From positions 1,376,001 through 1,440,000 of the forward strand of contig OZ241917.1 in the NCBI GenBank assembly GCA_965203805.1: 64,000 nucleotides of DNA. Reading direction: 5' to 3'. A program made the translations under genes and the position numbers. The DNA is from Candidatus Latescibacterota bacterium. Its GTDB lineage: Bacteria; Latescibacterota; UBA2968; GCA-2709665. The notes beneath the pieces are model-generated. The model was not told where the DNA came from, did no database searches, and saw only the letters and a program-made list of their open reading frames with translations. Shown one piece after another: positions 40,470 to 62,693 of the stretch (positions are counted from its first letter, which is position 1; every line of letters starts with the position of its first letter).

Positions 40470-43400
40470 TCAGAAGAGGCTGAGCTGATCCGCCTGCCTG
40501 ACCCGCCGCTGCGCGGCCAGGCGTTCCCGCTTCAGGAGTCCCGTTGGAATATCCTCGAGGAACCGGGACGGCGCCGGGCGGGTCCGTTCGCCGAAACGCA
40601 ACCTGCTCCGCGCGCAGAGCATCACGGCCTCGTCCTTTGCACGGGTCAGTCCCACGAACAGCAGCCGCCGCTCCTCCTCCGGGTCCGCGTCCGCGTGCGG
40701 AATCAGACCCTCCTCAACGCCGCAGATGAACACCACCGGATACTCCAGCCCCTTGGATGCATGCAGGGTAGACAACGTCACAGCCTCCGCCGGCGGCCGC
40801 GCAACCCCGCCGATACGTATGTAATCCGCGTCTGCGCCCAGCACAAGTGTATCGAGGAATCTCCGCATCGTTTCGAAGCTGACCGCCATTCGCGCCAGGC
40901 GGTCCAGATCGTCGTCCTCTTCCGACCCGGCCACTTCCTTCCAACGCCTGACCAGGACTTCGACGGATTCCGTTTTCGCCAGGGTTCTGAACGCCGCGGC
41001 TGCATCGCTCAGCGCCGAAACCTTCTCACTCACGGATGACGGCAGGTCGCTATCGACGATGCCATCATCGGTTCGGGGAATCCGATCGAGCGCTGCCTTT
41101 CCAGGATGAAAAACGGGGATCGCCAGCGCGCGCAGGAGACGTGAGCGTGCTCCGGGCCGGAACGCGTAGTTGAAGAACGCGAGTGCGTGCCGTACAGGCT
41201 CCGACGAGAGGAACCCCTTCTGACCAACCACACGGTACGGCAGTCCTTCTTCCACAAAGCATCGCTCAATCGCCTCCGCCTGGCGGCCGGTCCTGAACAA
41301 CACGACAAAATCCGACAGACTGCGGTCGCCCCGTCCCGTTGCCGGATCCCGTCCACCTGCCTCACCGGCCTGCAGCATATCCGCGCCGCCCATCATCCGG
41401 CTGATCTCACGGACCACCGCAATCCCCTCCGCCGTCTCCCCTGGCACGGAAACCAGGCGGACGGCAACGCCCTCTCCGCGAACGGCTTCCAGCCGGCCCG
41501 CACTCCGGATCACTGAGGTTGCCGCATCGACAACCTGCCGCGTGGCACGGTACGTTCTCTTCAGAACAAACGTCCGTGCGGCCGGAAGATCCTCGCGCAG
41601 CCTGCGAAAATACGCGGGACTCGCGCCACGGAATCCGTAGATGGCCTGGTCCGGATCGCCGATGACGAACAGACCGGCGCCATTGCGGGAGAGCGCAGTC
41701 ACCAGCCGGTACTGCACCGCATTCACGTCCTGGAACTCGTCCACGAGCACGTGCCCGAACCGATTTAGGACCCGGTCGGATGCTTCGTCGCCTTGCCGCA
41801 GCACCGCCAGAAACTCCAGCAGAATATCGTCGTAGTCCCAGACACCCAGCCTGTGCAACCGGCCCTGGTACGCCTGGTAGAGGCCGCGCAATTTCTCCGG
41901 CGCCTCCAACAGCGGATCGGTCTTCGCCAGTGAGATCGCCGACCGGGCATCCCGGACGGACAGGCCGATATCCGCATCGGCGATAATCTCCGCCACTACC
42001 TGCGCGGCCTCCGCCTCGTCGATCACCTGCCGCATCTCTCCGGGTCGGCAGGACTTCATCAGGTCCAGCGCCGCAGCGTGGAAAGTACCAAGCATCAGCC
42101 CGTTCAGCCCGTTGGCCCGGGGCAACAGCGCGCGAACACGTTCCCGCATTTCCGCGGCGGCCTTATTGGTAAACGTCACCGCCAGGATCGACGCCGGGTG
42201 CACACCCTCCTCCCCGATCAGCCTGGCGACACGATGGGTCAATACCCGTGTCTTGCCAGTGCCTGGACCCGCCTCTACGATCACCGGACCGGCGTCACAG
42301 ATAACAGCCGCCCGCTGTACTTCGTCCAATCCGCCCGGGTCCGCGACGTCGCCTGTCTCTTGCGCTTCACCGTTCCCGCCAGCGGGCGCTTCGGCCTGCG
42401 GCGGCGTTTTGGATGGCGTCACCGGCGTCGGCGCTTCCGGTCCGGAGGGCAGATCGAACAGCGCGGGCTGGCGGCTCAGGCGAGCGCGGTCCTCGTCCGA
42501 GAACACCTGGATTCGCCCGTACACACCGTCGTAGCCGGCGGCAATTTTCACCTCCCCGGTCCGCATTCGCCGCACGCCTTCCGCCACGAGCGGTTCGCCG
42601 GCGACGGCAATCGCTTCGGGGGACGCATCCCGCAAAATGCCGAGTTCGGGCCCCATGTCCGCAAGCAGCCTTTCGTACACCCCCTGGACTCTCTTGCTGG
42701 TTGGCCCCACACCGAGCACGGAACCGATAATCTCCGGCAGCGGAATCAGATTCTCATACGGCGGCGCCACGGCCGGCCTGCCGCCCTCCTCCCGGTCCGC
42801 CAACTGCTCGACGCGGTGCAGTACGCCCACGGTCAACCGCTTGCCGCATTCCGGGCACACACAATCCGCCGCAAGCGACTGCCTCGGCTCCCAGCAGATT
42901 CCGCATTTCCGATGCCCGTCCAGGTGATACTTGCCTTCTTCGGGATAGAACTCGAGCGTCCCCAGGAACCGATCGGGATCTCTGGTTTTCAGCGCGTCGT
43001 ACATGCCCCGGTACGACAATTCGGTATCGAAACAGGTGGCCTCCCGCGCCAGTTTCTGCGGGGAATGCGCGTCCGAATTGGAAACGATCGCATACCTGTC
43101 CAGCATCGACAGGCGCCAGTTCATCGGCGGATCCGACGAGAGCCCCGTCTCCACGGCGAAGATCGCCGGCAGCATGTCCTCGAAACACTCCTCGAGTGTG
43201 TCGAACCCGGAACTGGCGCCCAGCACCGCAAAATGGGGCGTCCAGATATGCGCCGGAATGAACAGCGCGTCGCCGGCCGCTTCCATGCAGATTTCCACGA
43301 GGTCCCGGCTGTCCAGGCCGAGGATAGGCCGCCCGTCCGATTTAAGGTTTCCGATGTCTCCCAGGCGGGCATTCAACCGCTCGACCGCCTCGAAACCGGG

Positions 43401-43739
43401 CATCAGTACGACGTGGTGCACCTTGCGGGTCCGGTCGTTCTTCTTGTAGATCACGCTGATCTCGGTAGACAGCACAAACCGAACCGTTCCCCGGCACCGT
43501 TCCGGGAGGTCATCGTCCACCGCAGCCTGCAGGGCCGGCTTTAGCCGGAACAGCCCCTCCTCCGCGGGCTCCAGGCGGTCCTTCAGCTCCTCGATCCATT
43601 CGGGATGGGTGAAATCGCCCGTTCCGACCACGTTCACGCCCTTGAGCGCGGACCACTTGTAGAGATTCTCCGGGTTCAGTTGACGGCTCGTCGCCCTGGA
43701 AAACCGGGAGTGCAGGTGTACGTCCGCCACAAATCGCAT
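40470..43739 (-). CDS. endonuclease Q-like PHP domain fused to UvrD/PcrA superfamily-1 helicase
   Basis: N-terminal ADVHLHSRFSRATS, GTGDFTHP, PAHIWTP, ETGLSSDP, NSDAHS, GKYHLDGHRKC..C...CPECG; C-terminal AGPGTGKT, TFTNKAA, VDEFQD, GDPDQAIYGFRG, TLHASKGLE, EERRLLFVGLTRA. Confidence 0.92.
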   Translation of the reverse strand: MRFVADVHLHSRFSRATSRQLNPENLYKWSALKGVNVVGTGDFTHPEWIEELKDRLEPAEEGLFRLKPALQAAVDDDLPERCRGTVRFVLSTEISVIYKKNDRTRKVHHVVLMPGFEAVERLNARLGDIGNLKSDGRPILGLDSRDLVEICMEAAGDALFIPAHIWTPHFAVLGASSGFDTLEECFEDMLPAIFAVETGLSSDPPMNWRLSMLDRYAIVSNSDAHSPQKLAREATCFDTELSYRGMYDALKTRDPDRFLGTLEFYPEEGKYHLDGHRKCGICWEPRQSLAADCVCPECGKRLTVGVLHRVEQLADREEGGRPAVAPPYENLIPLPEIIGSVLGVGPTSKRVQGVYERLLADMGPELGILRDASPEAIAVAGEPLVAEGVRRMRTGEVKIAAGYDGVYGRIQVFSDEDRARLSRQPALFDLPSGPEAPTPVTPSKTPPQAEAPAGGNGEAQETGDVADPGGLDEVQRAAVICDAGPVIVEAGPGTGKTRVLTHRVARLIGEEGVHPASILAVTFTNKAAAEMRERVRALLPRANGLNGLMLGTFHAAALDLMKSCRPGEMRQVIDEAEAAQVVAEIIADADIGLSVRDARSAISLAKTDPLLEAPEKLRGLYQAYQGRLHRLGVWDYDDILLEFLAVLRQGDEASDRVLNRFGHVLVDEFQDVNAVQYRLVTALSRNGAGLFVIGDPDQAIYGFRGASPAYFRRLREDLPAARTFVLKRTYRATRQVVDAATSVIRSAGRLEAVRGEGVAVRLVSVPGETAEGIAVVREISRMMGGADMLQAGEAGGRDPATGRGDRSLSDFVVLFRTGRQAEAIERCFVEEGLPYRVVGQKGFLSSEPVRHALAFFNYAFRPGARSRLLRALAIPVFHPGKAALDRIPRTDDGIVDSDLPSSVSEKVSALSDAAAAFRTLAKTESVEVLVRRWKEVAGSEEDDDLDRLARMAVSFETMRRFLDTLVLGADADYIRIGGVARPPAEAVTLSTLHASKGLEYPVVFICGVEEGLIPHADADPEEERRLLFVGLTRAKDEAVMLCARSRLRFGERTRPAPSRFLEDIPTGLLKRERLAAQRRVRQADQLSLF

Positions 43740-43769
43740 CGGGGTTCCTTTAGCCTACGTGATTTACAA

Positions 43770-44013
43770 ACATGGACTTACATGGATGAACAGGATGAAC
43801 AGGATAAAGACCAACGAAAAAGAAAATCACAAGATCTGAAAAATTCATAGACATAGCCCGACATGGATAGACAGGATGAACAGGATGAATACCAACGGCA
43901 ACGGCAAGAGCCAGAAGACATGATAATTCACCAACACAAACTTACATGGATGGAAAGGATGGAAACGAAGAAGCACGAGAAAACGAGAAGACGAAAAAAC
44001 GCGGGAAAACGAG
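43770..44013 (+). repeat. purine-rich intergenic scar with three ACATGGAT(G/A) 9-bp-period repeat blocks
   Basis: TTACATGGATGAACAGGATGAACAGGATAA (~43778), ACATGGATAGACAGGATGAACAGGATGAA (43861), TTACATGGATGGAAAGGATGGAAA (~43942), then ACGAGAAA-like repeats. Confidence 0.7.
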
Positions 44014-44118: not shown

Positions 44119-44712
44119 TCAAATGTCGTACGAAGGCTTCACGTCCCTATCGTATTTGTCGCGACTGGCCGACACGCATTGAAAGACCTGGTAACCGTTG
44201 ATTTCGACCCACATGTAGATCCTGTGGCAGATGTCGCAGACCCTCAGGACGTGGCCGCCGGGACGCTTCTCTTCGCGGTACATGATATCGTCATAGCCAC
44301 CGAGAAGGCGTGCGATATCGTCCCTTGAACTTCGATCGAGGAGCAACCCGATAATCTCACGCGGAAGGTCGGCCGCGGCCTGGCGCAGACGGTTGGTGTC
44401 CACGTCCCACGGGGATTTGAGCCCCGATCCGCACGCGCACCAGCGGTCGCTCATATCCCAGTCCTTACGAAACCACCACTGGTCGAGGATACGTCTGCAA
44501 GACATGCAGAATTCGTACGAATCCGTGGGATCCATACCCTCATTTCGGATCAGATCGCCGATCCGGTCGCGCTCATTCTGCGGCAAGTCTCCGAGCTTTA
44601 CGGTCGGCGTGTGACACCACCGGCATCGACGGGAACTCTTCCGTAGAAATATAACCAGCGCGATAAACCCGATGATCAGAAGCGCCGAGAAAACCAGATG
44701 CCCGGTTCCCAT
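44119..44712 (-). CDS. membrane-anchored Cys-rich (double zinc-ribbon) protein of unknown function, paralogue 3
   Basis: N-terminal TM then CRWC, CMSC, CAC, CDIC, YMWVEINGYQVFQCVS; aligns by eye along its full length with the two upstream ORFs. Confidence 0.8.
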   Translation of the reverse strand: MGTGHLVFSALLIIGFIALVIFLRKSSRRCRWCHTPTVKLGDLPQNERDRIGDLIRNEGMDPTDSYEFCMSCRRILDQWWFRKDWDMSDRWCACGSGLKSPWDVDTNRLRQAAADLPREIIGLLLDRSSRDDIARLLGGYDDIMYREEKRPGGHVLRVCDICHRIYMWVEINGYQVFQCVSASRDKYDRDVKPSYDI

Positions 44713-44768
44713 CTATATTACTCCTCAGCCGACCCCGCGGGTGCGCGGCGCCGTTCTTCCGCGTATAT

Positions 44769-45365
44769 TCAGGTTTCAATCTGGCGGCGGTCCGATACCC
44801 CCTCGTATTTTTCACGCCCCGACGAAACACACTGAAAAACCTGAAAACCCTTGATCTCAACCCACATATATACCCTGTGGCAGATATCGCACACCCGAAG
44901 CGGATGCTCTTCCGGACTCCGCTCGAAGCGGTAATCCAGATCGTCATATCCGCGACGGAGATGCGCCATCTCGTCGGGGCTGTAGCGTTCTGAAAGCAAT
45001 GTGATAACAGCCGGAGGCAGGTCCGCCACCGCCTGCCTGAGTTTCCTTGGATCGACATCCCACGGAATCGACAGTTCATAGCCGCAAGCGCACCACCTGT
45101 CGTGCACATCCCAGTCCGCCCCAAACCACCACTCGTCATAGATTCGCCGACAGGCCTCGCACAATTCGTACGAAACCTCGGGATCCATACCTTCTTCCCG
45201 GATGAGATCGCCGATCTGCGCACGCTCCGCGTCCGGTAAATCCCCGATTTTTCGTGTTGGCGAATGGCACCAGGCGCACAGGTGGGAGTCCCTCCGGAGA
45301 AACACCATCAACGCGATGACTCCCCCGATCAAAACTGCTGCGAAAATCAGATACCAGATTATCAT
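44769..45365 (-). CDS. membrane-anchored Cys-rich (double zinc-ribbon) protein of unknown function, paralogue 2
   Basis: TM, CAWC, CEAC, CAC, CDIC, YMWVEIKGFQVFQCVS. Confidence 0.8.
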   Translation of the reverse strand: MIIWYLIFAAVLIGGVIALMVFLRRDSHLCAWCHSPTRKIGDLPDAERAQIGDLIREEGMDPEVSYELCEACRRIYDEWWFGADWDVHDRWCACGYELSIPWDVDPRKLRQAVADLPPAVITLLSERYSPDEMAHLRRGYDDLDYRFERSPEEHPLRVCDICHRVYMWVEIKGFQVFQCVSSGREKYEGVSDRRQIET

Positions 45366-45446
45366 TGCAATTGACCCTCGCCGAGCCCGGAGCCCGGCAT
45401 CAACGCACTCCCCGGAAAACCGGTAGACATCATTCGCGCCCCGACA

Positions 45447-46028
45447 TCAGTCCGGCCGATCGTATTTGGCCGTGTCGCCCGATACAACCTGGAATACCTG
45501 AAAGCCCTTGACTGGCAACCACATATAGATCCGGAAACAGCTTCTACAGACGAACAGGATATGGTCGTTGGACACGGACGAGTACAGACGTTCGTGCAGC
45601 CCTTCCTTCCCGTATTTTCGCTCAATATACGCCATGATTTCCGAGGGGATTCCACGCAGCGCGGATTTCAGCGCATCGGTATCGACGATCAAAGCGGGTC
45701 GCGACAGGTCGCAGCCACAGGCGCACTGGCGATCGATCAACTCCCAGTCCATGCGGTGCGGGCGATTGTCGCTGAACCAGCGCCAGTCGTAAACGCGCTT
45801 GCACTTCGGACAGACCTCGTACTTCTCCGGCTCCCCGGGCATTTCCTCTTCCTGAATCAGCCGCCGTACCTGTTCCGCTTCGTCACGCGGCAAACGTTCG
45901 ATCGGCGCCGTCGATTTCATACACCATCTGCATCGACGTATCCGGTGCTTCGTCAGAAACACGACGACGATAACCGCAGCCATAACGCCTGCTGTAAAGA
46001 TGGCGATTTCTTCGACGGCAACGTCCAT
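45447..46028 (-). CDS. membrane-anchored Cys-rich (double zinc-ribbon) protein of unknown function, paralogue 1 (most divergent)
   Basis: TM, CRWC, CPKC, CAC, CRSC, YMWLPVKGFQVFQVVS; start set at MDVAVEE by alignment with its paralogues. Confidence 0.78.
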   Translation of the reverse strand: MDVAVEEIAIFTAGVMAAVIVVVFLTKHRIRRCRWCMKSTAPIERLPRDEAEQVRRLIQEEEMPGEPEKYEVCPKCKRVYDWRWFSDNRPHRMDWELIDRQCACGCDLSRPALIVDTDALKSALRGIPSEIMAYIERKYGKEGLHERLYSSVSNDHILFVCRSCFRIYMWLPVKGFQVFQVVSGDTAKYDRPD

Positions 46029-46267
46029 GGAGACGTCCGCTCTGACGTAAACCTGGATCGGATGATTGCGACAGTTGAATTGTTGTGATTTCAGGCAGGT
46101 AATGTACTGTTCAGTATAGCGTTTCGCCGTTCGAAATACAAGCACCGAGACAATGGCGAAACCGGGACATTTCGCGTCATCGTCGACTCACCCAATAGGG
46201 GCCCTTGCAGCGCCGCGTAAGGTGGACGATAGACCGGGAACTCGGCGACCGTTGAGCCCAAATCAGA

Positions 46268-46445: not shown

Positions 46446-49400
46446 TTGAGCGTTGAAACCCCGATTCGTGAAGGACAGACCCTGACAGGACCACAGTTTG
46501 ATGAACCGATGCATGTGGAAACGATCCGCACCAACGGCGTTGGCGTCTGGATTGCCGGGCTCGTCGGTCAGCGAACAGAAAGGTTCCGAAGGGTCACGTT
46601 AACGTCCGATGATATCGCCAATCTGACCATCGCCGACTCCTCGCTCTCGTACGAAGGTGACGGCAGACTACTGCGCATCGGTCTGCAGGCATACTCACTC
46701 GGCATTGCCTACGAGTTCGACCCCTATTTCGGACTATCTATCTCGCGTGTTGATCCACTTCCCCACCAACTCGAAGCCGTCTACGAACACCTTCTCAAGC
46801 TGCCAACGGTACGCTTCCTTCTCGCCGACGACGCGGGAGCGGGCAAAACCATCATGGCGGGACTGTTGATCCGGGAACTCAAACTCCGTGGACTGATCGA
46901 ACGCATTCTCGTGGTGTGCCCCGCAAATCTCGCATTTCAATGGCAACGCGAATTGAACGAAAAATTCGACGAGAAATTCTTTGTACTCAAAGGCGGCGAC
47001 CTACGTGACCAATTCGGCGTCAATCAATGGCTGGAACAAAACCAGATCATTACGTCGCTCGACCTCGCCAAACGCAGCGAAATCCTTCCTGGATTGGAGC
47101 AGGTTCGGTGGGACCTGGTAATTGTCGACGAAGCGCACCGCATGTCCGCGCGTGATGAGACTCACAAGAGCCAGCGGTACCGCCTTGGGGAAATGCTGCG
47201 GGACAGTGCAGACCACGTGTTGTTACTGACCGCCACGCCACATAAGGGAGATCCACAGAACTTTACCCTGTTCTTGCAGCTACTCGATCGCGACGCATAC
47301 GCCGATGTCAGTTCCATCCGCGAGGCAATGAATCAAAGGCGCGCGCCGTTCTACCTGCGCCGTACCAAAGAAGCCATGGTCTACTTTCCCGAGCGTCAGG
47401 AAAATGGCACGTGGACCGCAAAACCTGTGTTCACCAGACGAATCCCACGCACCGCGGATTTCGCAATCGATGGTCCCGAGTTTGAACTTATCGGACAATT
47501 ACCCGATTCGTTAAACGACAATGCACTCGAGCCGCAGCCCACGGCGACGACCCGCGGGCGCGCGCAGTCGGATTCTTAATGGCCTTGTACCAGCGCCGAC
47601 TCGCCTCAAGCACGTACGCTGTACGGCGATCCCTTGAGAATCGGGCGACACGCCTGGAGAAGGGCCTCAAGGAAGCACAGGTCCTGGTACAGAAAGCGCC
47701 ACCCAACATCCCCGATCCGGAAGACCTTGAGGAACTGGAGGACGCTGAACGCGAGCGACTTGAACGAATTCTCGAGGCAATAACATTGGCCGGAAACGCT
47801 GAGCAGGTACGCGAAGAAATTGCGGAACTCAGGAAGCTTGCGGAAGAAGCAAAGGAGGTCGAAGGCTCCAATGATGAAGCAAAATTAAACACGCTACAGA
47901 AGATCATGCAGGAACAAGGGTTTTTCGAACAGCGGGACCAGCGACTGCTGATTTTTACCGAGTTCAAGGACACACTCGACTATCTGATGCAACGCTTAAA
48001 GGACTGGGGCTTCAGCGTCGGCTGCATCCATGGCGGGATGAAACCAGGTTCTCGAGACGAACCCGGAAGCCGGCTCCATACCGAACAACAGTTCCGCGAA
48101 GGCAACATTCAGGTTCTCGTCGCCACTGAAGCTGCCGGAGAAGGGATCAACCTGCAGTGTTGCCACATCCTGTTTAACTACGATATCCCATGGAACCCAA
48201 ACCGACTCGAACAGCGCATGGGCCGCATCCACCGATACGGTCAACGGCGAGACTGCCTGATCTTCAACTTCGTCGCCACCAACACAATTGAAGGGCGGGT
48301 GTTACAACGACTCTTGGAGAAGCTGCAGGAGATCCGCGAAGCCCTTGATGACGACGCGGTATTCAACGTTGTGGGCGAAGTGTTGCCGTCCTCTCGGGTC
48401 GAGCGGGTACTGCGGGAATTTTACGCCGGCAAACTCGGCGAGGAAGACTTTGAAGACCGGCTCTTGAAGGACGTCGACGAAGGGAAGTTTCGGTCTATTT
48501 GCCAGACGGCGCTGGAAGGTCTGGCCTCCAGGAGGCTGAATCTGGACATGCTGATTGAGCGTCGGGCACGTGCGCAAGAGCGTCGTGTCGTTCCAGAAAC
48601 AATTGCACGCTTTATCACGGAGTGCGCCCGAGATGCGAGTCTTAACCTGAAGCCGGTAACTCGCCTAACACATACCTATGAACCTGGTCGAACGCCGACC
48701 GTATTGAAGCGGTACGAAACAGATTCGGACTGGAAACTGCCCGAATTGGCGGTCCGGTATCCTCGGTTGTCCACCGACCGTGACGCGGCCGAAGAACACA
48801 ACCTTGAGTGGGTGACTCCCGGACACCCTCTGTTTGAAGCCCTGCGCCGACACAGTCTGGACCTCAGTCAGGCCGCTTTTGCTAACGGCGCATGCTTCCA
48901 TTCTCTCACACATGACGCCCCGGCGCGTTTCGACTTTTACCGTGCGCGGGTGGTGGACGGTCTCGGAAGAGTTATCCACGAACGGCTGTTCACCGTTGAG
49001 ATATCGAGTGAAGGCGCCCCGAGCCTAAGCGGTCCTGACGCCCTTGGTGACTTGATTCCGACAAAGAACCCGGATAAATTGCCGGAGGTGGCCTCGCTTA
49101 CGGAAGAGACAGCCTGGCTGAACGAGCACGCGCTGCTTCCCTTCATTGAGGAAGTTCGCACGGAGCGGCTGGCCGAGATGGATCGAATTGCCGAGCACGT
49201 AGAACTTTCCTTGACGGAAGTACTTCAGCGGATCGATGAAGAAATAGGCCGCGCCGCTGAAGAAGTCGAGAATGACGTGACCGGCGCCGAAGGTCGCCTG
49301 GCACAGGCCGAAGCCCGACATGGCGAGGTCCTTACGCGACGCGAGCGCAGACGTGAGGAACTTGAACAACAACGCGCGGTAACACTTCAGGCCGTCGAGC

Positions 49401-49831
49401 GGTTGGCAAGCGCACTCGTCCTCCCTCATCCCGAGAACGAGACCCTGGACGTCCGGCGGCTGCGCCCCCATCCTGAAACTGAAATGACCGCCATGCGGGT
49501 GGTTATGGAACACGAAACCGCACAGGGACGCCAAGTGTACGACGTCCATAAGAAAAACCTCGGTTACGACGTCACTAGCCTTGATCTGCGATCAGGCGAA
49601 TTGCGACTGATCGAAGTAAAGGGATTGGCTCGCGACTCAGGTAGCATCCTCCTCACACCGAACGAACGCCGCGTCGCCGAAGATCGTCCTGATTGCTTTT
49701 GGCTCTACGTCGTCACCAACTGCGCGAACGAGCCAGAACTTCAAGAACCGATCAAAGATCCCGCGCGGTATCCGTGGCAGAAAGTGACCAAAGTGGCACA
49801 CTACTATTTAAGCGTGAATGCTCTCAAATAG
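46446..49831 (+). pseudogene. SNF2-family helicase with C-terminal DUF3883 (PD-(D/E)xK-like) domain, split by a 1-nt frameshift near 47488 (pseudogene, split gene or assembly error)
   Basis: ORF 46446-47579 has LLADDAGAGKT, DEAH, TATP; ORF 47579-49831 has LIFTEF, GEGINLQ, WNPNRLEQRMGRIHRYGQ, GYDV...IEVKG. Adding one T at GAACTT^ATCGG gives an open in-frame join, EFELYRTITRFVKRQ...AVGFLMALYQRR. Confidence 0.85.
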
Positions 49832-49889
49832 CCGATTGAATTCACAGAAGCGATCTTGTCGCGTCTCGATATGAGAAAGCACTGTTAGC

Positions 49890-52800
49890 GTGAACGCCCA
49901 CGATCTATACAATGCGGGCACTGTCGACGGAATTATCCCGGAAGGCGATGCCGCGCGCCAAGCAGTTGATTCTCTTCGAGGATATGCGTATCAGGTCCTG
50001 GCGGCGACGCTCGCGTGGCTCGATATCGACGAAGATTGTCAACTGTTTCTGGAAGTCGCAGAAGACTACGCGACCATTGCGAAACATACGCTTGATGCTG
50101 TTCAGGTCAAATACACGAAGGGATCGGGATCGGTCACGCTGAATAGCGAAGATATCCGCAATGCAGTTGTCACGTTTATCGATCTCTTCGAACGAAATCC
50201 TGATATTCAGGTTGAACTCCGTTATTTTACCACATCGGAAATAGGAAAAGAGCAAGCAATTGCTGACCGCCCGGCCGGGATGGCCGGGCTGAAGTATTGG
50301 TGTAAAGTCGCCTCTGGTGCGGACCTTAAGCCCCTCCGCTCAATATTAGAGAGCGAGAAGTTCCCGGAATCCGTAAGGGATTTCGCCAGGGCTCGCTGTG
50401 ACACTGCGCTTCGCCGTGATCTCATTAAGAGAATAAGATGGGATTGCGGTAAGCCGGACTTTTCGACTCTTCGCCACAGACTGGAAGAACGTCTAATTGT
50501 CGTAGGCCGCGACCGATTCAAACTTCCGGCTGCAGTAGCGCGAGGGCTTGCCGATCTTCTGCTCTATCAGGTACTTAAAAAAAGCATCGCGGAGACATCC
50601 CAAGATCGCGTTCTCACGCGCGGAGCCCTTTACTCCGAGATCGATGCCGCCACCCAGATCTCAGTGTCGCAGTGGTCTTTTGACGCTCTTGTGAGATCTG
50701 CCACGCGCAGCATGGCGGGAATGCTTAAAGGAGACTCGGGCCTAAGCAATCCAATTTCCATTTCAGATACAGAATGGCTTATAGACGGTACCACGCTTCC
50801 CGCGCCCCAAGGCATGGTACCACGCGCTGCGCTCGAGTCCGCCGTGGCCGATGCCCTCAGAAATTTCGGCGCGGGCGTGATTGTGGGTAGCAGCGGGCTT
50901 GGGAAGTCGAACCTGTCAAGGGCTGCCGCAGTCGCGCATCCCGGCACCTTCCATATGGTGGGATTTAGAGACATAGGAGCGAACGAAACAAGCCGAATTC
51001 TCGAAATGGTTCTTGCCCGATTCGGGGGGCTGCAGTCGTCAGTTCTGATCCTGGACGACCTTAACCAAATCGACGACACATATGTTAAATTGTCGCTGGC
51101 GCGTGTCATTGAAGGTTCGCGACGGAACAACCGCGTCGTGCTCGTAACATGTGACCGGCGCCCTTCTTCGACTACGTTGGCCAAAATTGGCCTCAATCAA
51201 GGTTGCGTCGTCGAATGTCCGTACTTTTCCGAGAAGGAGGTTTGTTCGCTCGTCATAAAAAATGGAGGTGATCCGAAAAGATGGGGCAAACTCGCCTATA
51301 TCGCCGGAGCCGCCGGCCATCCGCAACTTACTCACGCTTTCGTAATTGGAATGGCGACGAGAAGATGGCCAGCTAGTGAGTTTAGAGACCTCATTAATCG
51401 TGGCATGTCTACCGAAGAGATCGATGCCACTCGCCTCGAAGTTCGACGGAGTTTGGTTTCTCGGCTTCCTGAGGAAACACGGAACCTTCTGTATCGGCTT
51501 AGCCTTACGATCGGACGCTTCAATCGGTCTACGGCGTTGGCCATAGGTGAGATACGCCCACAACTGTCCCGAGCTGGGGAATCTATCGACCAGCTCGTCG
51601 GACCGTGGATAGAACCCGTCGGACAAGATTTATTCCGCGTTTCCCCGCTTGCAAGTAGCATTGGGCGTGAGATGTTGTCTCCTGACGTCCAACAACGCAT
51701 CCATGAAATCCTCGCAGTCCAGATGCTCAGAAAACGCACGATCGATGCACGCGACGCCGACACAATATTGGCACATGCGATATTAGGCAAGTCACCGCAA
51801 AGCTTATTTTCGATCGCTCAAGGTGTGCTGTCGGCTGATCCTCTCAACGTCGAGATGCTTTCGGAACAGTTCTTACTCTTGCGCTTCGCCCGAGCCGACG
51901 TGCCAATCTTGGCGGATGATCCCTTTGTCTCTGGAATTGTTCGGCTCGCGCAATTCAAGCTTGCGGCGGCTACCGGTAAATCAGCCGAGATCGCAGAAAT
52001 CGCGACAACGTTTTACAACGAAATTCGGTGCATGCCAGCTGGCGAACTGAAGTCCGCCCTTGAAGCAATGGGGGTCTTCGTCGTGCTCGGTACGATGGGA
52101 GTCGCGAACCATATTGACAACTGGGTCACCCTATTACTTGAATTTAAGACTTCAGGAATAAACAATGCTTTTTTTCAGGACAGGATTGCCGGTGCCATGT
52201 CCGATCTGGATGGATTGAATTACGTTGACGCGCTTTTTGACCTCGGAAGTGCTGGTCTCACTTCAATAGGTAAACTTGAACAAATCATCAACGAACTCGA
52301 CAAACTGAATGAGAGCGACCGAGCGCTGTTGTTGACGCAGACAGACGAAACGTCCTCCGATTATTCAGTGTTAATCAACGGCACTTGGGCTGCACAGACA
52401 AACCGCGCGGATTTTGACGCGTGCGACGCCGCAGTTCGTTACCAGCGGATGGCGAAAATGACGCGGAGTTGGGGTATCCGCACGTTCTCACTCCAATGTT
52501 CGGTTGCCCAAGCGGTGATCCTTGACGAGCATGAGAACAAGAAAGATCGTGCTGTGGAAGTTCTCAACGAGACAGCTACGGCCCTGGGCGACGACCCAAT
52601 CCTTCGTAGCGCTTTAGCGAATATTCACTCGCGCCATCATGAAAATCAGGCCGCCTTCGAAATCTATCGTAGTTTGGCGGATCATGTTGGCGGAACCGAT
52701 CCAGCTGAGCGTGCGTTCTTGCTGCGTAAGGCGGCTATGAGCGCTGCAAAATGCGACGAATGGTCGCTAGCGGCAACCTGGTTTCTTGACGCGCAGAGTG

Positions 52801-53999
52801 CTGCTGAATTAGCCGAAGGCGATACAATGGACGCGTTCGCGATCGGCTTGGGGGCCGACTCGGCGGTGGCCGCTCTTAAGGCTGGAAATGTAGTCCAGGC
52901 GTTTAAGCGCCTTGCGGACTCGTTACAGGCCTTAGCTGACGTTGACCCAGAAGCGACATTGCAAGCGACATACTGCCACCTTGTTATTCGCCAAACCGTA
53001 CTTTGGGCACAATTCCAAATCGAGGGAAGCAAAGCCCTGATTGGCGGAGAGCGTATAGGAATGGAGCCGGGTTCCTGCAGCAATCCAAGTCCCTCGCCCG
53101 CAATCCGGGAACAGCCACTTGCACATATTGATGTCGCCTGGTATATGTTGGCTAAGGCGGAGGCCACCGCCGACATCGACGCAGGAATCTCAGCGACGCT
53201 TGTCGATCGCTTGGCGCAGGGTCCCATCCCAGCAATGGAAGTAGACCTGCGGACGAAAGCAATACAAGCGCACATCAATAGGCTCGATGCCAAGAGGTTT
53301 ACGGCTCATTTCATGCCCTACGTTGAATCGGCCGTATACTTGTCAAAGGAAACCCGTCGATTTCGGCCGACGTTCGATCCGTTGGCGCCGGAAAGAGGAC
53401 TGATACCCGCGCTGGACGAAAATCAGCCGTTTGACTCTGCGGCTGAAGAGGCGGCTAATGATGCCATCATTGCCTATGGCATCATTTCTTCAATGAAAGA
53501 ACAACCTGACGCCATGAAGGAGCTTGAAAACGCCTTAGAATGCCGATTCACCGGCCAGTTTCCCGGTAAACAGTTATTCGCATATTGGCACAAGAAGACT
53601 GGGGCTCTTTCGCAACTTGATCAAACTGTGGTAACGATCGCGAAAACGCATCTTCGTAACGAGCACGTGGAACCCTATTTTTTTTGGATGACCGGGCTAC
53701 GTTTCTTTGAGAGGATCAACCAATCTATGTTCAAGGATCTCCTTACACCCCGGCTCGCCGCCTGGCAGAGGGCTGGTTGGAAGCGAATAATAGCTGTAGA
53801 GTCGTTTCGCCTTACAAGACCTAGACATACTGTGCCCCCTATTGAGAAAATTCTGGCGATACCGGTCGATGATCGGCGCTTTGTCGCAAGGCTTCTTCTT
53901 GCAACCTCCGAGGCCGTCGACTCTCCCTCTCCCCTGGGGTCGGCGTACCGTCGTAGCCTTAAGGCTATGGCAAGGAATGAAGAATCGCACAAGGAATGA
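49890..53999 (+). CDS. large putative defence protein: Cap4/DUF4297-like nuclease + P-loop (STAND-like) NTPase + helical-repeat C-terminus (Avs-like)
   Basis: N-terminal RGYAYQ...LEVAEDY...AVQVK; Walker A GSSGLGKS; Walker B VLILDD; AGHPQL (GxP-like); long Ala/Leu-rich helical C-terminus; 1369 aa. Confidence 0.68.
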   Translation: MNAHDLYNAGTVDGIIPEGDAARQAVDSLRGYAYQVLAATLAWLDIDEDCQLFLEVAEDYATIAKHTLDAVQVKYTKGSGSVTLNSEDIRNAVVTFIDLFERNPDIQVELRYFTTSEIGKEQAIADRPAGMAGLKYWCKVASGADLKPLRSILESEKFPESVRDFARARCDTALRRDLIKRIRWDCGKPDFSTLRHRLEERLIVVGRDRFKLPAAVARGLADLLLYQVLKKSIAETSQDRVLTRGALYSEIDAATQISVSQWSFDALVRSATRSMAGMLKGDSGLSNPISISDTEWLIDGTTLPAPQGMVPRAALESAVADALRNFGAGVIVGSSGLGKSNLSRAAAVAHPGTFHMVGFRDIGANETSRILEMVLARFGGLQSSVLILDDLNQIDDTYVKLSLARVIEGSRRNNRVVLVTCDRRPSSTTLAKIGLNQGCVVECPYFSEKEVCSLVIKNGGDPKRWGKLAYIAGAAGHPQLTHAFVIGMATRRWPASEFRDLINRGMSTEEIDATRLEVRRSLVSRLPEETRNLLYRLSLTIGRFNRSTALAIGEIRPQLSRAGESIDQLVGPWIEPVGQDLFRVSPLASSIGREMLSPDVQQRIHEILAVQMLRKRTIDARDADTILAHAILGKSPQSLFSIAQGVLSADPLNVEMLSEQFLLLRFARADVPILADDPFVSGIVRLAQFKLAAATGKSAEIAEIATTFYNEIRCMPAGELKSALEAMGVFVVLGTMGVANHIDNWVTLLLEFKTSGINNAFFQDRIAGAMSDLDGLNYVDALFDLGSAGLTSIGKLEQIINELDKLNESDRALLLTQTDETSSDYSVLINGTWAAQTNRADFDACDAAVRYQRMAKMTRSWGIRTFSLQCSVAQAVILDEHENKKDRAVEVLNETATALGDDPILRSALANIHSRHHENQAAFEIYRSLADHVGGTDPAERAFLLRKAAMSAAKCDEWSLAATWFLDAQSAAELAEGDTMDAFAIGLGADSAVAALKAGNVVQAFKRLADSLQALADVDPEATLQATYCHLVIRQTVLWAQFQIEGSKALIGGERIGMEPGSCSNPSPSPAIREQPLAHIDVAWYMLAKAEATADIDAGISATLVDRLAQGPIPAMEVDLRTKAIQAHINRLDAKRFTAHFMPYVESAVYLSKETRRFRPTFDPLAPERGLIPALDENQPFDSAAEEAANDAIIAYGIISSMKEQPDAMKELENALECRFTGQFPGKQLFAYWHKKTGALSQLDQTVVTIAKTHLRNEHVEPYFFWMTGLRFFERINQSMFKDLLTPRLAAWQRAGWKRIIAVESFRLTRPRHTVPPIEKILAIPVDDRRFVARLLLATSEAVDSPSPLGSAYRRSLKAMARNEESHKE

Positions 54000-54150
54000 G
54001 CTAAGTTGGCCGTACGCGATATTCTTTCCGTCCCGGAGCAATGGCAAATCGACAGCCATCGATTCGGGATCGGTCGATCAGATTATCTGTGTATCAGGTT
54101 GCGGTAGATTTCTTTGAAACCATCCTTCTCTGTGTGGAGGAACGCGAACC

Positions 54151-57120
54151 TTGATCCCTAGCGAATGTAAACGCCTCGCTGAGGTCGACTTCCCGATCGA
54201 GGAGGTTTCGCGACACGCGGCAAAAGAGAAGTCCATTCGACATGGCCACCCCTCGACCCTTCACTTGTGGTGGGCGCGACGACCGTTGGCCTCGTCAAGG
54301 GCCGTTTTGATGGCGTTGCTTTTGCCGGACCCTTGTGATGAATACTGTCCCGAGGAGTTTAAGAAAAAAGCTCGTGAGAGCCTTCTTTGTCTTAATGGAC
54401 GACCACAAGGTTGGACGACTGCCATCCGATCAGATGAAGGATTGAGCCGCATCATTTTAAAGTTCATCGCCGACTTTGCCGATTGGAAGAACGCGGCGAA
54501 TAGCGATTACTTGAAGACAGGCAGGGCGCTGGTGAAGGCGGCACACGGCGAGGAGCCACCGCTGGTGGTTGACCCTTTTGCAGGCGGGGGCTCAATTCCG
54601 TTGGAGGCGTTGCGGCTGGGTTGCGAGGCGTTCGCGAGCGATCTGAATCCGGTGGCGTGCCTGATCCTCAAAGTGATGCTGGAGGACATCCCACGCCACG
54701 GACGGGGGCTAGCTGACGAGTTGCGTCGCGTCGGCAGAGATATAAAGCACGATGCTGAACTCGAGTTCGCGGATCTGTACCCCAGAGACCCAGATGGTGC
54801 AACGCCGATTGCCTATTTGTGGGCGCGCACGGTGCGTTGCGAAGCGCCCAAATGCGGCGCAGAGATTCCGCTGATGCGTTCGTTCTGGCTGTGCAAGAAG
54901 GCCAAGCGCAAACGGGCATTGCGGCATCGAGTGGAACGGAGCGAAGTTGGGCCGGCGCGCGTCGAATTCGAGATCTTTGAACCGGACTCGGACGACGAAG
55001 TCCGAAGCGGGACAGTGACCCGCGCCAAAGCCACCTGCCTTTGCTGCGGTGCGGTGCTGCCGCCGGAGCGAGTGCGGGCGCAACTTGCGGCTGAGCGGGG
55101 CGGGGCGGATGTGATTTTTGACGCAGAGGGACGACGGACAGGTGGGGCGCGGATGACGGCAGTGGTGACGATCAAGTCTGGGGAGGCCGGGCGGCACTAT
55201 CGGCTGCCGACAAACGCGGATTACGCGGCGGCGCGAAGGGCTCATGAGCGTGTATCGCAGTATTTGATCGAATGGGAGAAGGAAGGGAAGCACGGACCTC
55301 GTCCGGTGCCGGATGAGCCGACACCTGCTGGAGGCGGATCGGGTGCGGGTCGTGCATTCAGCTTGCAACGCTACGGTATGATGCAGTGGGGCGACTTGTT
55401 TACGGCGCGGCAGAAGGCTGCTTTGGTGGGGTTAGGGACGCTACTCTCCACTGAATGCTCAAGAAACTATGAATTGGCCAAATCATTACTCGTGGGTCGG
55501 ATGGCGGACTTCCTTGTTTCCTTAGCACGATGGAAACCAGATGCAGAGTGCCCTGTTCAGGCTCTTGCTCGACAAGCGGTGCCAATGGTTTGGGATTTTG
55601 TTGAAGCTAACCCGTGGAGTGGTGCCACGGGTTCAATTGAAAGCCAAGCCAAACGAATGGCAGATTCTGTTGAATCGGTATGTATTCCGTTCGAGGATAC
55701 TGGACAAATTGAGCACATAGACGCTACCGCCCACCCACTCCCTGACCAGACCGCAGGAGTCTGGTTTACCGACCCACCCTATTACGACGCCATACCCTAT
55801 TCCGATCTCTCCGACTTTTTTTTCGTATGGCTCAAGCGGACGCTGCCAGATCACCCGTTGCTACGCGATCCGTTCGATCCACACAACCCACTCTCGCCTA
55901 AGACGGCCGAGGCCGTACAGGACGAAACCAAGCAAGCCGACGGCCTACCCAAAAACCGCGAGTGGTTTGAGGAAACAATGGCGAAAGCCTTCGCCGAGGG
56001 TCGCCGCGCGCTAAGCGAGGATGGCGTTGGCTCGGTGGTCTTCGCTCACAAAACCACCGAGGGCTGGGAGGCGTTGCTCTCCGGTATGATTCGAGGAGGT
56101 TGGACCATCACCGGCTCTTGGCCGATTGCAACCGAAATGGCGTCGCGCCTGCGAGCCCGCGAGTCCGCCGCTCTCGCCACCAGCATCCACCTTATCTGCC
56201 GCACCCGTCCCGATGATGCCGGCATCGGCGACTGGGGTGACGTCCTACGAGAATTGCCCGTTCGCGTCGCGGAATGGATGCAGCGCTTACAGCGCGACGG
56301 CATTCGTGGTGCTGATCTGGTGTTCGCCTGCATCGGTCCTGCGTTGGAGATATTCAGCCGCTTTCGTAAAGTTGAGACCGCCGAGGGTAAGACAGTCGCC
56401 CTGGCCGAGTACCTCGAGCGGGTATGGGAAGTGGTCGGTCGTGCCGCGTTGCAACAGGTACTCGGGGCTGCCCAGGCCGGCGCGCTCGAAGAGGACGCAC
56501 GCCTGACAGCGCTCTTTCTTTGGACTTTACAGACCACTGAAGTGCGTTCAGACGACGGGAAACCGGAGCAGCCAGAGGAGGAAGGGGCCATTACAGCTAC
56601 CGCAAAGGGCTTAAGCCTACCCTTTGACGTCGTGAGGCGATTTGCCCAGCCCATGGGCATCAACCTCGATACCTGGACTGACCGCATTATCGGCCAGGAA
56701 AAAGGCGTTGTACGCCTGCTGCCGGTGTCAGAGCGCGCAGGAAGTCTCTTTGGTGCGGAAGGGACAACTATGGTCGCTGAACGTATCGAACGCGATCCAC
56801 ATTGGGATGTTCAACAGAAACTCTTTGCGAATTTGGACGGGCCTGCGCCATCACTCGTTCGCGAACCTAGGATAGGATACGGCGAATCGGCTGACGACGA
56901 ATCCGATCGGGCGCCTGGCGACACCACGCTCGACCGCGTACACGCCGCGATGCTATTTCAGTCGAGCGGACACGCCAACGCATTGAGGGAATTGATTGGC
57001 GCAGAACAGGATCGCGGCCCAGACTTCCTTCGACTTGCGAATGCGTTGTCGGCGCTGTATCCAAGAGGCAGCAACGAGAAACGCCTGCTGGACGCTATGC
57101 TGCTGGCAGTTCCAAGGTAG
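54151..57120 (+). CDS. DUF1156-domain amino-DNA methyltransferase with zinc ribbon
   Basis: RLAEVDFP, EKSIRHGHPSTLHLWWARRPL, DPFAGGGSIPLEA (SAM binding), DLNPVA, YLWARTVRCEAPKCG, TCLCCG, FTDPPYYD; GGAGG RBS before TTG. Confidence 0.92.
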   Translation: MIPSECKRLAEVDFPIEEVSRHAAKEKSIRHGHPSTLHLWWARRPLASSRAVLMALLLPDPCDEYCPEEFKKKARESLLCLNGRPQGWTTAIRSDEGLSRIILKFIADFADWKNAANSDYLKTGRALVKAAHGEEPPLVVDPFAGGGSIPLEALRLGCEAFASDLNPVACLILKVMLEDIPRHGRGLADELRRVGRDIKHDAELEFADLYPRDPDGATPIAYLWARTVRCEAPKCGAEIPLMRSFWLCKKAKRKRALRHRVERSEVGPARVEFEIFEPDSDDEVRSGTVTRAKATCLCCGAVLPPERVRAQLAAERGGADVIFDAEGRRTGGARMTAVVTIKSGEAGRHYRLPTNADYAAARRAHERVSQYLIEWEKEGKHGPRPVPDEPTPAGGGSGAGRAFSLQRYGMMQWGDLFTARQKAALVGLGTLLSTECSRNYELAKSLLVGRMADFLVSLARWKPDAECPVQALARQAVPMVWDFVEANPWSGATGSIESQAKRMADSVESVCIPFEDTGQIEHIDATAHPLPDQTAGVWFTDPPYYDAIPYSDLSDFFFVWLKRTLPDHPLLRDPFDPHNPLSPKTAEAVQDETKQADGLPKNREWFEETMAKAFAEGRRALSEDGVGSVVFAHKTTEGWEALLSGMIRGGWTITGSWPIATEMASRLRARESAALATSIHLICRTRPDDAGIGDWGDVLRELPVRVAEWMQRLQRDGIRGADLVFACIGPALEIFSRFRKVETAEGKTVALAEYLERVWEVVGRAALQQVLGAAQAGALEEDARLTALFLWTLQTTEVRSDDGKPEQPEEEGAITATAKGLSLPFDVVRRFAQPMGINLDTWTDRIIGQEKGVVRLLPVSERAGSLFGAEGTTMVAERIERDPHWDVQQKLFANLDGPAPSLVREPRIGYGESADDESDRAPGDTTLDRVHAAMLFQSSGHANALRELIGAEQDRGPDFLRLANALSALYPRGSNEKRLLDAMLLAVPR

Positions 57121-57332
57121 TGGACAAAATCCCACTGTCGGACGTAATACAACCGAAGCCCCGCGAACACCAGCGGTCACTCTGACTGATTGACCTGAAC
57201 GAAACGGGTCGACAGTAGCGCCTGCGCCGTCACCCCGCACGCGTTCATCGACAAAGATGCGCTGAACGTTCTCCCATTTCCTGAACCGTAAAACGACCTT
57301 ACGCGAAAAGTATCGGCTTCACCGAGGCAATC

Positions 57333-59015: not shown

Positions 59016-59045
59016 CGATTCTCCATTATCCATAGGAACTCAGGA

Positions 59046-61844: not shown

Positions 61845-61990
61845 GAGCACCTACGCGAAGGCACACGAAAAGAGCCAGATTTCGGCACGCTCTCTCACGT
61901 CTCAACAGTGTATTTTGTGTTCGTTAGAAATCAGATCGGGCTAGTCGGGGAAGTTCGAATTCGCCGTTTTTCTATAGGCATGAGCAAGCG

Positions 61991-62317
61991 ATGAAGACAA
62001 CAGGAATTGACCAGAGTACGCTAGACGAGATCATCCGGCGCGTCGTTGATGTCGCCCGGCCGGAAAAGATCATCCTGTTCGGGTCCGCCGCCCGGGGCGA
62101 GATGAACCGTCACAGCGACGTGGACTTGCTTATTATCAAAGACGGCGCGGATGCGCTTGAACTTATGGGCGAAATCTATATGAATCTCGATGGCGTCGGC
62201 GCAGCTGTCGACGCTGTTGTCGTAACGCCCGACGATTTAGAGCGGTATCGGGATAGTCACGCTGTGATCATCAAGCCCGCGTTGAAAGAAGGCAGGGTCG
62301 TATATGAATCCTCCTGA
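61991..62317 (+). CDS. minimal nucleotidyltransferase (MNT) antitoxin
   Basis: IILFGSAARGEMNRHSDVDLLII (GS-x10-DxD), 108 aa. Confidence 0.9.
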   Translation: MKTTGIDQSTLDEIIRRVVDVARPEKIILFGSAARGEMNRHSDVDLLIIKDGADALELMGEIYMNLDGVGAAVDAVVVTPDDLERYRDSHAVIIKPALKEGRVVYESS

Positions 62318-62693
62318 GCGATTCCCACCCGATGATCCGCGGGAATGGCTGAACCGCGCCAGAAGTAGCCTGGCAATCGCGAATAACCGAATTCCTGACG
62401 TTTACCTGGAAGACCTGTGCTTTGAAGCCCAGCAGGCAGCCGAAAAGGCCATCAAAGCCGTGATGATCAAGCGAGGCGTCGATTTCCCGTATGTACATGA
62501 CCTTGCCCGATTGCTTTCCCTGCTCAAAGAAGCGGACGAATCGATCCCAGACGTCGTCGGACAGGCCGGAAAGCTCACTCGATTCGCCACAATCACTCGC
62601 TATCCGATGAACCAGGCAGTCACTGATCAGCACTATCTGGAGGCGCTGTCCACCGCCGAAGCAGTCGTTCGGTGGGCGGAGGGGCGTGTGTGA
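62304..62693 (+). CDS. HEPN domain protein (partner of MNT)
   Basis: EWLNRA, CFEAQQAAEKAIKA, HDLARLL, TRYP; overlaps the MNT gene by 14 nt. Confidence 0.9.
   Translation: MNPPERFPPDDPREWLNRARSSLAIANNRIPDVYLEDLCFEAQQAAEKAIKAVMIKRGVDFPYVHDLARLLSLLKEADESIPDVVGQAGKLTRFATITRYPMNQAVTDQHYLEALSTAEAVVRWAEGRV

Follow-up and report, generated by a model that had tools for sequence, protein, structure and literature searches.

Three tandem genes on the minus strand of a 64,000-nt stretch of a Candidatus Latescibacterota genome (contig OZ241917.1, positions 1,376,001 to 1,440,000; referred to here as the window) encode an apparently undescribed protein family. Judged from sequence, its members are lineage-specific zinc-ribbon membrane proteins related to known kinds of zinc-ribbon membrane protein, and the three genes are real and constrained. 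The defence island of the Hma type that faces them in the window is probably one of several interchangeable occupants of an insertion hotspot rather than their partner. As to function, we tentatively propose a membrane-tethered adaptor.

Three tandem paralogues share a Cys motif

All three genes lie on the (-) strand and were delimited from open reading frames (ORFs) and alignment. Copy 1 (type T1) occupies 44119..44712 and encodes 197 amino acids (aa), copy 2 (type T2) 44769..45365 with 198 aa and copy 3 (type T3) 45447..46028 with 193 aa counted from the ATG. The frame of copy 3 remains open beyond this ATG up to a GTG at 46145. We take the ATG at 46028 to be the true start, and the longer frame not to be the gene, because the orthologues of copy 3 share the N-terminus MDV(A/S)..E and because the GTG frame would overrun a conserved promoter-like motif described below. 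Exactly three copies of the family are present in the genome, all of them in the triplet.

A preliminary description of this DNA had reported three tandem paralogues with a common motif string, and in our alignment every element of that string is an invariant column. In copy-1 numbering these are C30/W32/C33, C69/C72/R74/D77, D84/W85 and D89/R90/C92/A93/C94/G95, followed by C159/C162/R164/Y166/M167/W168, G173/Q175/V176/F177/Q178/V180/S181 and K186/Y187. Copy 1 shares 61% identity with copy 2 and 39% with copy 3. Copy 3 is the most divergent of the three, with 6 extra residues past the first ribbon and a shorter helical insert. The zinc knuckles are the best-kept part (53–80% identity between the window copies), and identity is lowest in the transmembrane helix, the helical insert and the tail. 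For the insert it amounts to 12–19% in comparisons with copy 3 and to 52% between copies 1 and 2, which bears out the earlier statement that the inserts diverge between paralogues. The soluble parts also differ in net charge and isoelectric point: -1 and 6.3 for copy 1, -12 and 4.9 for copy 2, +2 and 8.1 for copy 3.

Short contigs from RNA libraries (X18, X20) map to copy 1 with 1 mismatch, and in a relative (X19) such contigs span copy 2 and the junction between copies 3 and 2. We regard this as a weak hint that family genes are transcribed; against it, DNA contamination could account for the contigs. They leave most of the window uncovered, which is no sign of silence.

Membrane topology and predicted zinc sites

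In each of the 52 family proteins only one segment, at the N-terminus, is strongly hydrophobic. Likewise in 52 of 52 the positive charge is higher behind this helix than ahead of it, with a mean of +4.2 in the 12 residues after the helix versus -0.7 before it. According to the positive-inside rule, an established principle of membrane topology, this fits a cytoplasmic location of the Cys domain, as had been supposed from the basic residues behind the helix, and a cytoplasmic location in turn favours ligation of zinc over disulfides. With 0–7 residues outside at the N-terminus, one transmembrane helix and some 170 residues in the cytoplasmic domain, the proteins would be bitopic inner-membrane proteins. 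A reversed topology would make the Cys domain periplasmic and disulfide-bonded, and the protein an extracytoplasmic sensor or binding protein. Eight Cys could indeed form four disulfides and the N-terminal helix could serve as a signal anchor, but the charge behind the helix in every member speaks against this arrangement, as do the CxxC...CxxC pairs with their flanking strands, which look like zinc ribbons, and a first module that resembles the cytoplasmic ribbon of Mut7-C proteins. We give the reversed topology next to no chance.

The eight Cys (30, 33, 69, 72, 92, 94, 159 and 162 in copy-2 numbering) are invariant or near-invariant in 22 diverse members, and seven of the eight are invariant among 45 soluble domains. 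We obtained confident AlphaFold2 models of copy 2 at full length (pLDDT 86.4, pTM 0.76) and as the soluble part with a 45-row alignment (pLDDT 83.8, pTM 0.80). In the models the transmembrane helix is followed by a knuckle, a strand, a long helix and a hairpin, which form the first site. The second site starts at the CxC knuckle and continues through four short helices into a sheet of three strands that bears the last CxxC. Strands surround the knuckles of the full-length model at residues 36–39, 66–69 and 74–77 and at residues 97–99, 156–159 and 165–171. The arrangement that defines a Cys4 zinc ribbon, two CxxC-type knuckles at beta-hairpins with four Cys per site, was found in both sites (2+2 and 2+2 Cys), judged by the conserved Cys and the strands around them. 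The two Cys4 sites probably hold the cytoplasmic domain together. In the first, C30/C33 and C69/C72 would form a zinc ribbon like that of Mut7-C, its two knuckles separated by a helix. In the second, C92/C94 and C159/C162 would belong to a split ribbon, which surrounds a four-helix insert and precedes a small beta-sheet.

Each protein had also been described as internally duplicated. When half 1 (residues 27–88) was aligned with half 2 (residues 89–182) using hhalign, 23 columns around the second knuckle of each half were matched (probability 86.9%, E 4e-6), which makes a duplication of the second-knuckle element plausible. The halves as a whole did not align, and to that extent the claim has to be narrowed.

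Relation to known families and folds

The triplet proteins went unmatched in NCBIfam, PADLOC and PHROGs, and any Pfam match stayed below threshold; no curated model in any of these collections was reached, in agreement with the earlier view of an unrecognised family. The zinc-ribbon end of Pfam Mut7-C (DUF82, PF01927) was matched weakly by 14 of 22 members, with a best E of 3e-5 over profile positions ~83–140 of 146. Copy 2 scored 17.1 bits and copy 3 21.9 bits against a gathering cut-off of 23.3, and copy 1 had no match. The likeness lies in the first Cys4 module (about residues 23–86) with its CxxC, helix and CxxC-x-R-x-Y-x-x-W, and the C-terminal Cys4 ribbon with inter-knuckle helix that marks Mut7-C was found here with C30/C33 and C69/C72 conserved. 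However, the PIN-like nuclease part of Mut7-C (profile ~1–80) is missing from the triplet family, and a transmembrane helix stands in its place. Mut7-C proteins are soluble; those of the triplet family carry the N-terminal helix and, beyond the first ribbon, a further one that is split by a helical insert. The first ribbon is therefore Mut7-C-like, in a protein that is not a member of the Mut7-C family.

Small zinc-ribbon membrane proteins and the DZR family (PF12773) resemble the triplet in having two Cys4 knuckle pairs in a small protein with a transmembrane helix. A DZR match was obtained for 1 of 22 members (E 2e-4) and for none of the other 21. In the triplet family the ribbons are each broken by helices and do not stand side by side, and in typical DZR membrane proteins the ribbons precede the transmembrane segments. 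In their way of working the triplet proteins may be compared to ZipA and RNase Y, N-terminally anchored bitopic proteins with cytoplasmic working domains. They share with these a short outside N-terminus, one transmembrane helix and, going by the topology signal, a cytoplasmic working domain, but no relation in sequence or fold, so that the comparison is an analogy and not a membership.

A zinc-binding anti-sigma factor (ZAS, zf-HC2) was considered and rejected. Proteins of this kind are recognised by an N-terminal cytoplasmic HxxxCxxC domain followed by a transmembrane helix and by an adjacent gene for an extracytoplasmic function (ECF) sigma factor. In the triplet family the transmembrane helix is N-terminal and the Cys domain follows; there was no match to zf-HC2, RskA_N matched 3 of 22 members only (E 0.028 or worse), and there is no sigma-factor gene beside the array in the window.

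Searches beyond curated families gave little. The best match of a profile search against PDB sequences had an E of 0.19. For the full-length model, Foldseek returned 0 matches at E <= 0.001 in the PDB and likewise 0 in BFVD (viral structures), and among 48,161 chains compared with VIA-align the highest Z was 3.7 (5yfb_A, root-mean-square deviation (rmsd) 3.0, 56 aligned residues), with 0 chains at Z >= 5; a second structural search of the PDB reached a best Z of 2.1. The model of the soluble domain gave 0 Foldseek matches at E <= 0.001 and a best VIA-align Z of 3.4, again with 0 chains at Z >= 5. In the ESM Atlas the best score was 0.82, under the level that we counted as a lead. These negatives, for the full-length protein and the soluble domain, do not prove a new fold. 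A literature search on zinc-ribbon transmembrane anti-phage proteins found no paper on the triplet family by title or abstract, which is no proof that the family is unpublished.

The weak structural matches did show one pattern. About 10 of 21 rows obtained with the soluble domain were of the XRE type, among them the RodZ N-terminus (2wus_S, Z 2.9, rmsd 3.5, 58 aligned), XRE regulators, CapH, YdaS, HipB and C.AhdI, and the pattern was similar with the full-length model. As a lead only, this raises the idea that the proteins are membrane-tethered DNA-binding regulators whose four-helix insert is an XRE-like helix-turn-helix. All these XRE-type rows fall at Z 2.0–2.9, far under the level that the tool treats as meaningful, no Pfam helix-turn-helix model matches, the insert is the least conserved part between the paralogues, and the soluble domain of copy 2 has a net charge of -12. 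We thus consider such a role very unlikely. RodZ itself is a bitopic membrane protein, and its likeness to the triplet consists of weak rows on the four-helix insert. Its helix-turn-helix lies N-terminal, before the transmembrane segment, it has no zinc ribbons, its Z is at noise level and there is no sequence match.

The array is conserved within the genus

We recovered the homologous array from 12 loci of other species in the genus (L004–L015). The array genes of these loci sort into three orthologue groups that correspond to the three window copies, with 6 orthologues of T1, 8 of T2 and 8 of T3 (n=7, n=9 and n=9 when the window copy is included). Array size varies from 1 to 3 copies. The order T3-T2-T1 is found in the window, L006 and L010, and T3-T2 in L004, L007, L009 and L011 as well as in L008, where T3 is frameshifted. 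L005 has T2-T1, L012 and L013 have T3-T1, L014 has T1 only, and L015 has T1 only in a frameshifted form.

Median pairwise ratios of nonsynonymous to synonymous substitution rates (dN/dS) within the groups were 0.16 for T1, 0.26 for T2 and 0.22 for T3, and those of the helical insert alone were 0.11–0.21. The paralogues are old, and each is under purifying selection. This contradicts the earlier idea of a diversifying array: each type forms a conserved orthologue group, and purifying selection within each type argues against ongoing diversification by positive selection.

In a tree of 52 rows, from which fragments and frameshifted copies were left out, the three types of the genus stand beside two types from genus g11, one of which groups with genus g5, and a distant clade with members from f5, f7 and metagenomes; the tree gives no firm order for the deep branches.

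A conserved promoter-like motif precedes the array

Upstream of the first family gene, an alignment of 10 loci contains an invariant block, GCTTGTATTTC-N7-GAAAC-N-CTATACTG. In the window it corresponds to a promoter-like motif at 46113..46141 on the (-) strand, composed of TTGTAT, a 17-nt spacer and TATACT, with a conserved TTTC-N7-GAAAC within the spacer. From its end to the downstream ATG of copy 3 at 46028 there are about 85 nt. It occurs once per locus in 12 of 12 genus loci with <= 3 substitutions, ahead of whichever paralogue leads, and is unique in its own genome at <= 3 mismatches. The array thus seems to have its own conserved sigma-70-like promoter, the activity of which is predicted. 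Two points weigh against this assignment: the -35 hexamer agrees with the consensus at only 3 of 6 positions, and the site went unnoticed in a generic promoter scan. Between 43000 and 47000 there was no Rfam match at E <= 1, and terminator-like sites are no commoner than in shuffled sequences.

Homology with L005 upstream of the array stops near 46299, and Hma homology begins near 46430, which places the boundary of the defence island between these two positions. The array therefore appears to keep its own regulatory region whatever its neighbour. The proposed co-regulation with the defence operon through a shared intergenic region is not borne out, since the array has its own motif in all 12 related loci irrespective of what lies opposite.

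The opposite flank is a probable hotspot for defence islands

In the window the variable flank of the array is taken up by a defence island of the Hma type, recognised by PADLOC matches at 46446..61844 on the (+) strand. The start of copy 3 at 46028 (-) faces the start of HmaA at 46446 (+), and the head-to-head arrangement noted from the start is therefore correct for the window.

The content opposite the array changes between species. Hma with embedded genes is found in the window and intact Hma with a kinase/ORC-like gene in L006. Opposite the array of L004 stand DUF6079, SLFN/Fic-like and methylase genes. An AAA_21/SMC-like ATPase together with AlbA_2-HATPase_c_4 occurs in L007, L013, L014 and L015, AlbA_2-HATPase_c_4 alone in L009 and L012, and L011 has ORFs with no Pfam match. 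L005 and L008 contain no island but only an MNT/HEPN pair and a DUF1016 nuclease; here the orthologues of the MNT/HEPN genes of the window stand directly by the promoter region of the array. Altogether only 2 of 13 genus loci, the window and L006, have Hma facing the array; L013 and L014 keep remnants of it, and at least four other gene sets occur elsewhere. From this turnover between species we conclude that the flank is, as far as synteny can tell, an insertion hotspot for defence islands, in which Hma would be one interchangeable occupant and not a partner, its link to the array being incidental. There is no tRNA gene in the window to mark the hotspot.

These observations bear directly on the reading of the array as a component of the Hma operon, or as co-regulated with it via the shared divergent intergenic region. 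The triplet is a physical neighbour of Hma, head-to-head with HmaA across 417 nt in the window and likewise in L006, and the GC content of the array is nearer to that of the island than to that of the core. Still, the triplet lies outside the operon, no PADLOC model, whether Hma or HEC, matches the family, and array and promoter-like motif persist where Hma is replaced by other islands or absent altogether. HmaA of the window is frameshifted and the three array genes are intact. The available part of the published description presents Hma as a three-gene system of helicase, methylase and ATPase, and no component like the triplet appears in that part (Payne et al. 2021, PMC8565338). Synteny largely refutes the membership of the array in Hma, which we regard as extremely unlikely.

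The genes of the island, all on the (+) strand, begin with HmaA in two ORFs (46446-47579 and 47579-49831; PADLOC 4e-70 and 1.5e-92). They are followed by a gene for an LmuA/DUF4297-like protein of 1369 aa (49890-53999; PADLOC LmuA 4e-12, at the N-terminus), HmaB (54151-57120; PADLOC 1.7e-113), a 560-aa ABC ATPase of the AriA/GajA/HEC-01A kind (57333-59015; matched by NsnB, AriA, GajA and HEC-01A models) and HmaC (59046-61844; PADLOC 5.8e-92). The MNT/HEPN pair (nucleotidyltransferase/HEPN, 61928-62690) closes the island. Compared with the intact 1137-aa homologue of L006, HmaA is disrupted by a single frameshift near 47489, so that residues 9–357 and 358–1137 are in different frames; the split gene is either a pseudogene or the result of an assembly error. 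The LmuA-like and ABC ATPase genes inside the Hma operon fit a pattern of embedded defence genes, which the available part of a preprint describes as frequent at Hma loci (bioRxiv 10.1101/2024.01.29.577857).

The constant flank contains an EndoQ-UvrD fusion gene

On its other side the array is followed by a constant flank. A gene at 40470..43739 (-) encodes a 1089-aa fusion of an EndoQ-like domain (residues 5-419; PDB 5zb8, PfuEndoQ, E 2.9e-48; TIGR00375) and a UvrD/PcrA-type helicase, the latter recognised by UvrD models. As in the window, each of the 12 genus loci has its orthologue downstream of the array and in the same orientation, with gaps of about 80–380 nt. Past EndoQ-UvrD there are further core genes, namely for an FGGY kinase, a glycosyltransferase, PhyH and a radical SAM enzyme. 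EndoQ-UvrD itself is a conserved core gene in the order, 76–77% identical in g5 and g11 and with open frames of 1097–1291 aa. We found no paper on such a fusion in a literature search, which does not prove that it is unpublished.

The constancy of this flank suggests that the family may work with EndoQ-UvrD, e.g. by tethering it to the membrane or regulating it, the genes being co-transcribed. Besides the genus-wide arrangement on the same strand, no minus-strand terminator-like site was found between array and EndoQ-UvrD, and a distant member in G003 (f5) faces, head-to-head, an EndoQ-like gene that stands alone and shares 62% identity with the EndoQ domain of the window. On the other hand, the linkage throughout the genus amounts to a single evolutionary event. 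Outside the genus, EndoQ-UvrD is 0.68–2.8 Mb away from the family genes in 3 of 3 g5/g11 genomes checked (G060, G079, G083), and of 20 loci fetched from other genera a single one has the genes side by side. Moreover, 9 of 12 genus loci have a dispersed repeat immediately ahead of the EndoQ-UvrD start, which would suit separate regulation. Prediction of a complex between the EndoQ domain (1–435) and the family soluble domain scored 0.00 both times it was run, a result that counts neither for nor against. Overall we judge a joint function with EndoQ-UvrD to be unlikely.

The family appears confined to Latescibacterota

A collection of 5.8 billion proteins contained 22 relatives, and 32 representatives were found at E <= 0.001 among 1.84 billion cluster representatives. 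The 12 genus loci are labelled Candidatus Latescibacterota (9), Gemmatimonadota (2) and 'uncultured bacterium' (1). The family is present in 34 of 168 Latescibacterota genomes, comprising 13 of 14 in the genus, 2 of 2 in g5, 14 of 21 in g11, 0 of 76 in family f4 and few elsewhere. On these occurrences we consider the family to be confined to Latescibacterota. Sponge-metagenome runs from two studies contain 54–74% of sampled words of the window, and one of the sponge runs (X5) covers the array with few differences. Only 2 family loci were present in JGI metagenome contigs.

We also considered an origin from mobile elements and rejected it: none of 43 candidate stretches from IMG/VR encodes a relative, and a tblastn search with copy 3 came up empty against 50,697 phage and 72,556 plasmid records.

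The GC content of the array genes is 56–57% compared to 63–65% in the neighbouring core gene, and this offset from EndoQ-UvrD is seen in the window and in the relatives alike. At third codon positions (GC3) the triplet takes an intermediate place with 0.65–0.71, the core having 0.75–0.78 and the Hma island 0.55–0.63.

Neighbourhoods in other genera

From other genera 20 loci were fetched, of which 18 were annotated using 106 of their ORFs. In 7 of these 18, as a raw count, the family gene has a defence, toxin-antitoxin or transposase gene no more than 4.5 kb away. In g5, where the family occupies a different chromosomal site, the defence neighbours are McrBC (L046) and GmrSD, a kinase and AAA_15 (L065). 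L051 contains a PIN gene, L058 an integrase with AbiEii/AbiEi, L064 AbiEii, and L052 and L063 contain transposases. The remaining loci are surrounded by ordinary metabolic or envelope genes. Taken together, the family tends to sit in variable DNA, which in its own genus and in g5 is rich in defence genes, and seems to have no universal partner gene. A looser link with conflict loci may therefore exist.

A recurrent arrangement was found in three g11 loci (L047, L052 and L056), in which a family gene of one paralogue type is directly followed by a gene for a 193-aa polytopic membrane protein (no family match), an exporter and HlyD. This exporter is an ABC exporter with cyclic nucleotide (cNMP)-binding and C39-peptidase parts; TPR and glycosyltransferase genes are nearby. 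For g11, a C39-ABC exporter is adjacent in 3–5 of 18 loci, and such an exporter also stands behind a distant member in L063. The family could accordingly be imagined as an immunity-like or accessory membrane part of peptide or bacteriocin export, with the window triplet as an orphan array that protects against the products of relatives. Tandem divergent paralogues with gain and loss of copies do resemble immunity arrays. Typical small membrane immunity proteins, however, are unlike a cytoplasmic Cys-rich domain, and the orthologues here are conserved and not hypervariable. No exporter, toxin or precursor gene lies by the array in the window or in the 12 genus loci, and other g11 loci lack the exporter as well (L049, L050, L051, L054, L058 and L059). 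We think it quite unlikely that the family serves export, although it may do so in g11.

Two further observations concern single loci. The frame of the cNMP/C39 ABC exporter at L055:3645-5969 (-) opens with about 65 residues that are like the N-terminus of the family (E 2e-15); this stretch is probably the remnant of a family gene read in frame upstream of the exporter. In L067, from the JGI metagenome contigs, a DNA methylase gene lies two genes off, a case too thin to be used.

Possible role of the triplet proteins

The role that we tentatively put forward, possible although short of probable, is that of a membrane-tethered zinc-ribbon adaptor that is accessory and independent of Hma. The transmembrane helix would tether a zinc-stabilised binding module at the inner face of the membrane, where the module would capture or sequester a cytoplasmic macromolecule. 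A protein would be a likelier partner than a nucleic acid because copy 2 is strongly acidic. Insert and surface charge are where the paralogues chiefly differ, and each copy would accordingly bind with a specificity of its own, probably to a protein partner rather than to a nucleic acid common to all. Both the binding of a partner and any role in conflict are suggestions drawn from the features above. The patchy spread of the family, the gain and loss of copies and the lower GC content point to an accessory, possibly conflict-related function rather than a housekeeping one.

Several points weigh against the adaptor and its possible place in conflict. The adaptor has no known partner, ligand or phenotype, and zinc binding is deduced solely from Cys spacing and topology. 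The neighbourhoods outside the genus are heterogeneous, and 11 of the 18 annotated loci have no defence, toxin-antitoxin or mobile gene within 4.5 kb. As the genomes look defence-rich, the adjacency to a hotspot may reflect chance or mere variable DNA. Strong purifying selection, together with a site fixed beside a core gene in 13 of 14 genomes of the genus, would equally fit a lineage-specific housekeeping function.

One could go further and imagine a self-contained module against phages or mobile elements: a tethered zinc-ribbon sensor of the invader at the inner membrane face, with the paralogues as specificities varied in insert and charge and the acidic copy 2 as a possible nucleic-acid mimic, kept at the edges of hotspots in sponge-associated Latescibacterota. 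We hold this to be rather improbable, about as much so as a part in export.

The triplet adds to a poorly studied and largely sponge-associated phylum a conserved and apparently undescribed family that combines a transmembrane anchor with two ribbons, one Mut7-C-like and one split around a helical insert. The result also corrects the reading of these genes as part of the Hma operon. Array and invariant promoter-like motif would form a fixed edge of the hotspot by the core EndoQ-UvrD gene and could serve as an anchor for cataloguing defence islands in uncultured symbionts. Should a role in conflict or in tethering the repair enzyme be true, the proteins would represent a new small module; with neither role they would be lineage-specific membrane proteins of modest general interest.

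A dispersed repeat lies between the array and EndoQ-UvrD

Between copy 1 and EndoQ-UvrD we noticed three tandem units of about 82 nt at 43762-43980. The 26-nt core of the repeat (ACATGGATGGACAGGATGAACAGGAT and variants) occurs at 52 places in the genome compared to 0 for a reversed control, and its depth in a sponge metagenome run is far above that of the flanks. It is this repeat that, in 9 of the 12 genus loci, immediately precedes the start of EndoQ-UvrD. From its sequence and placement it appears to be a dispersed intergenic element.

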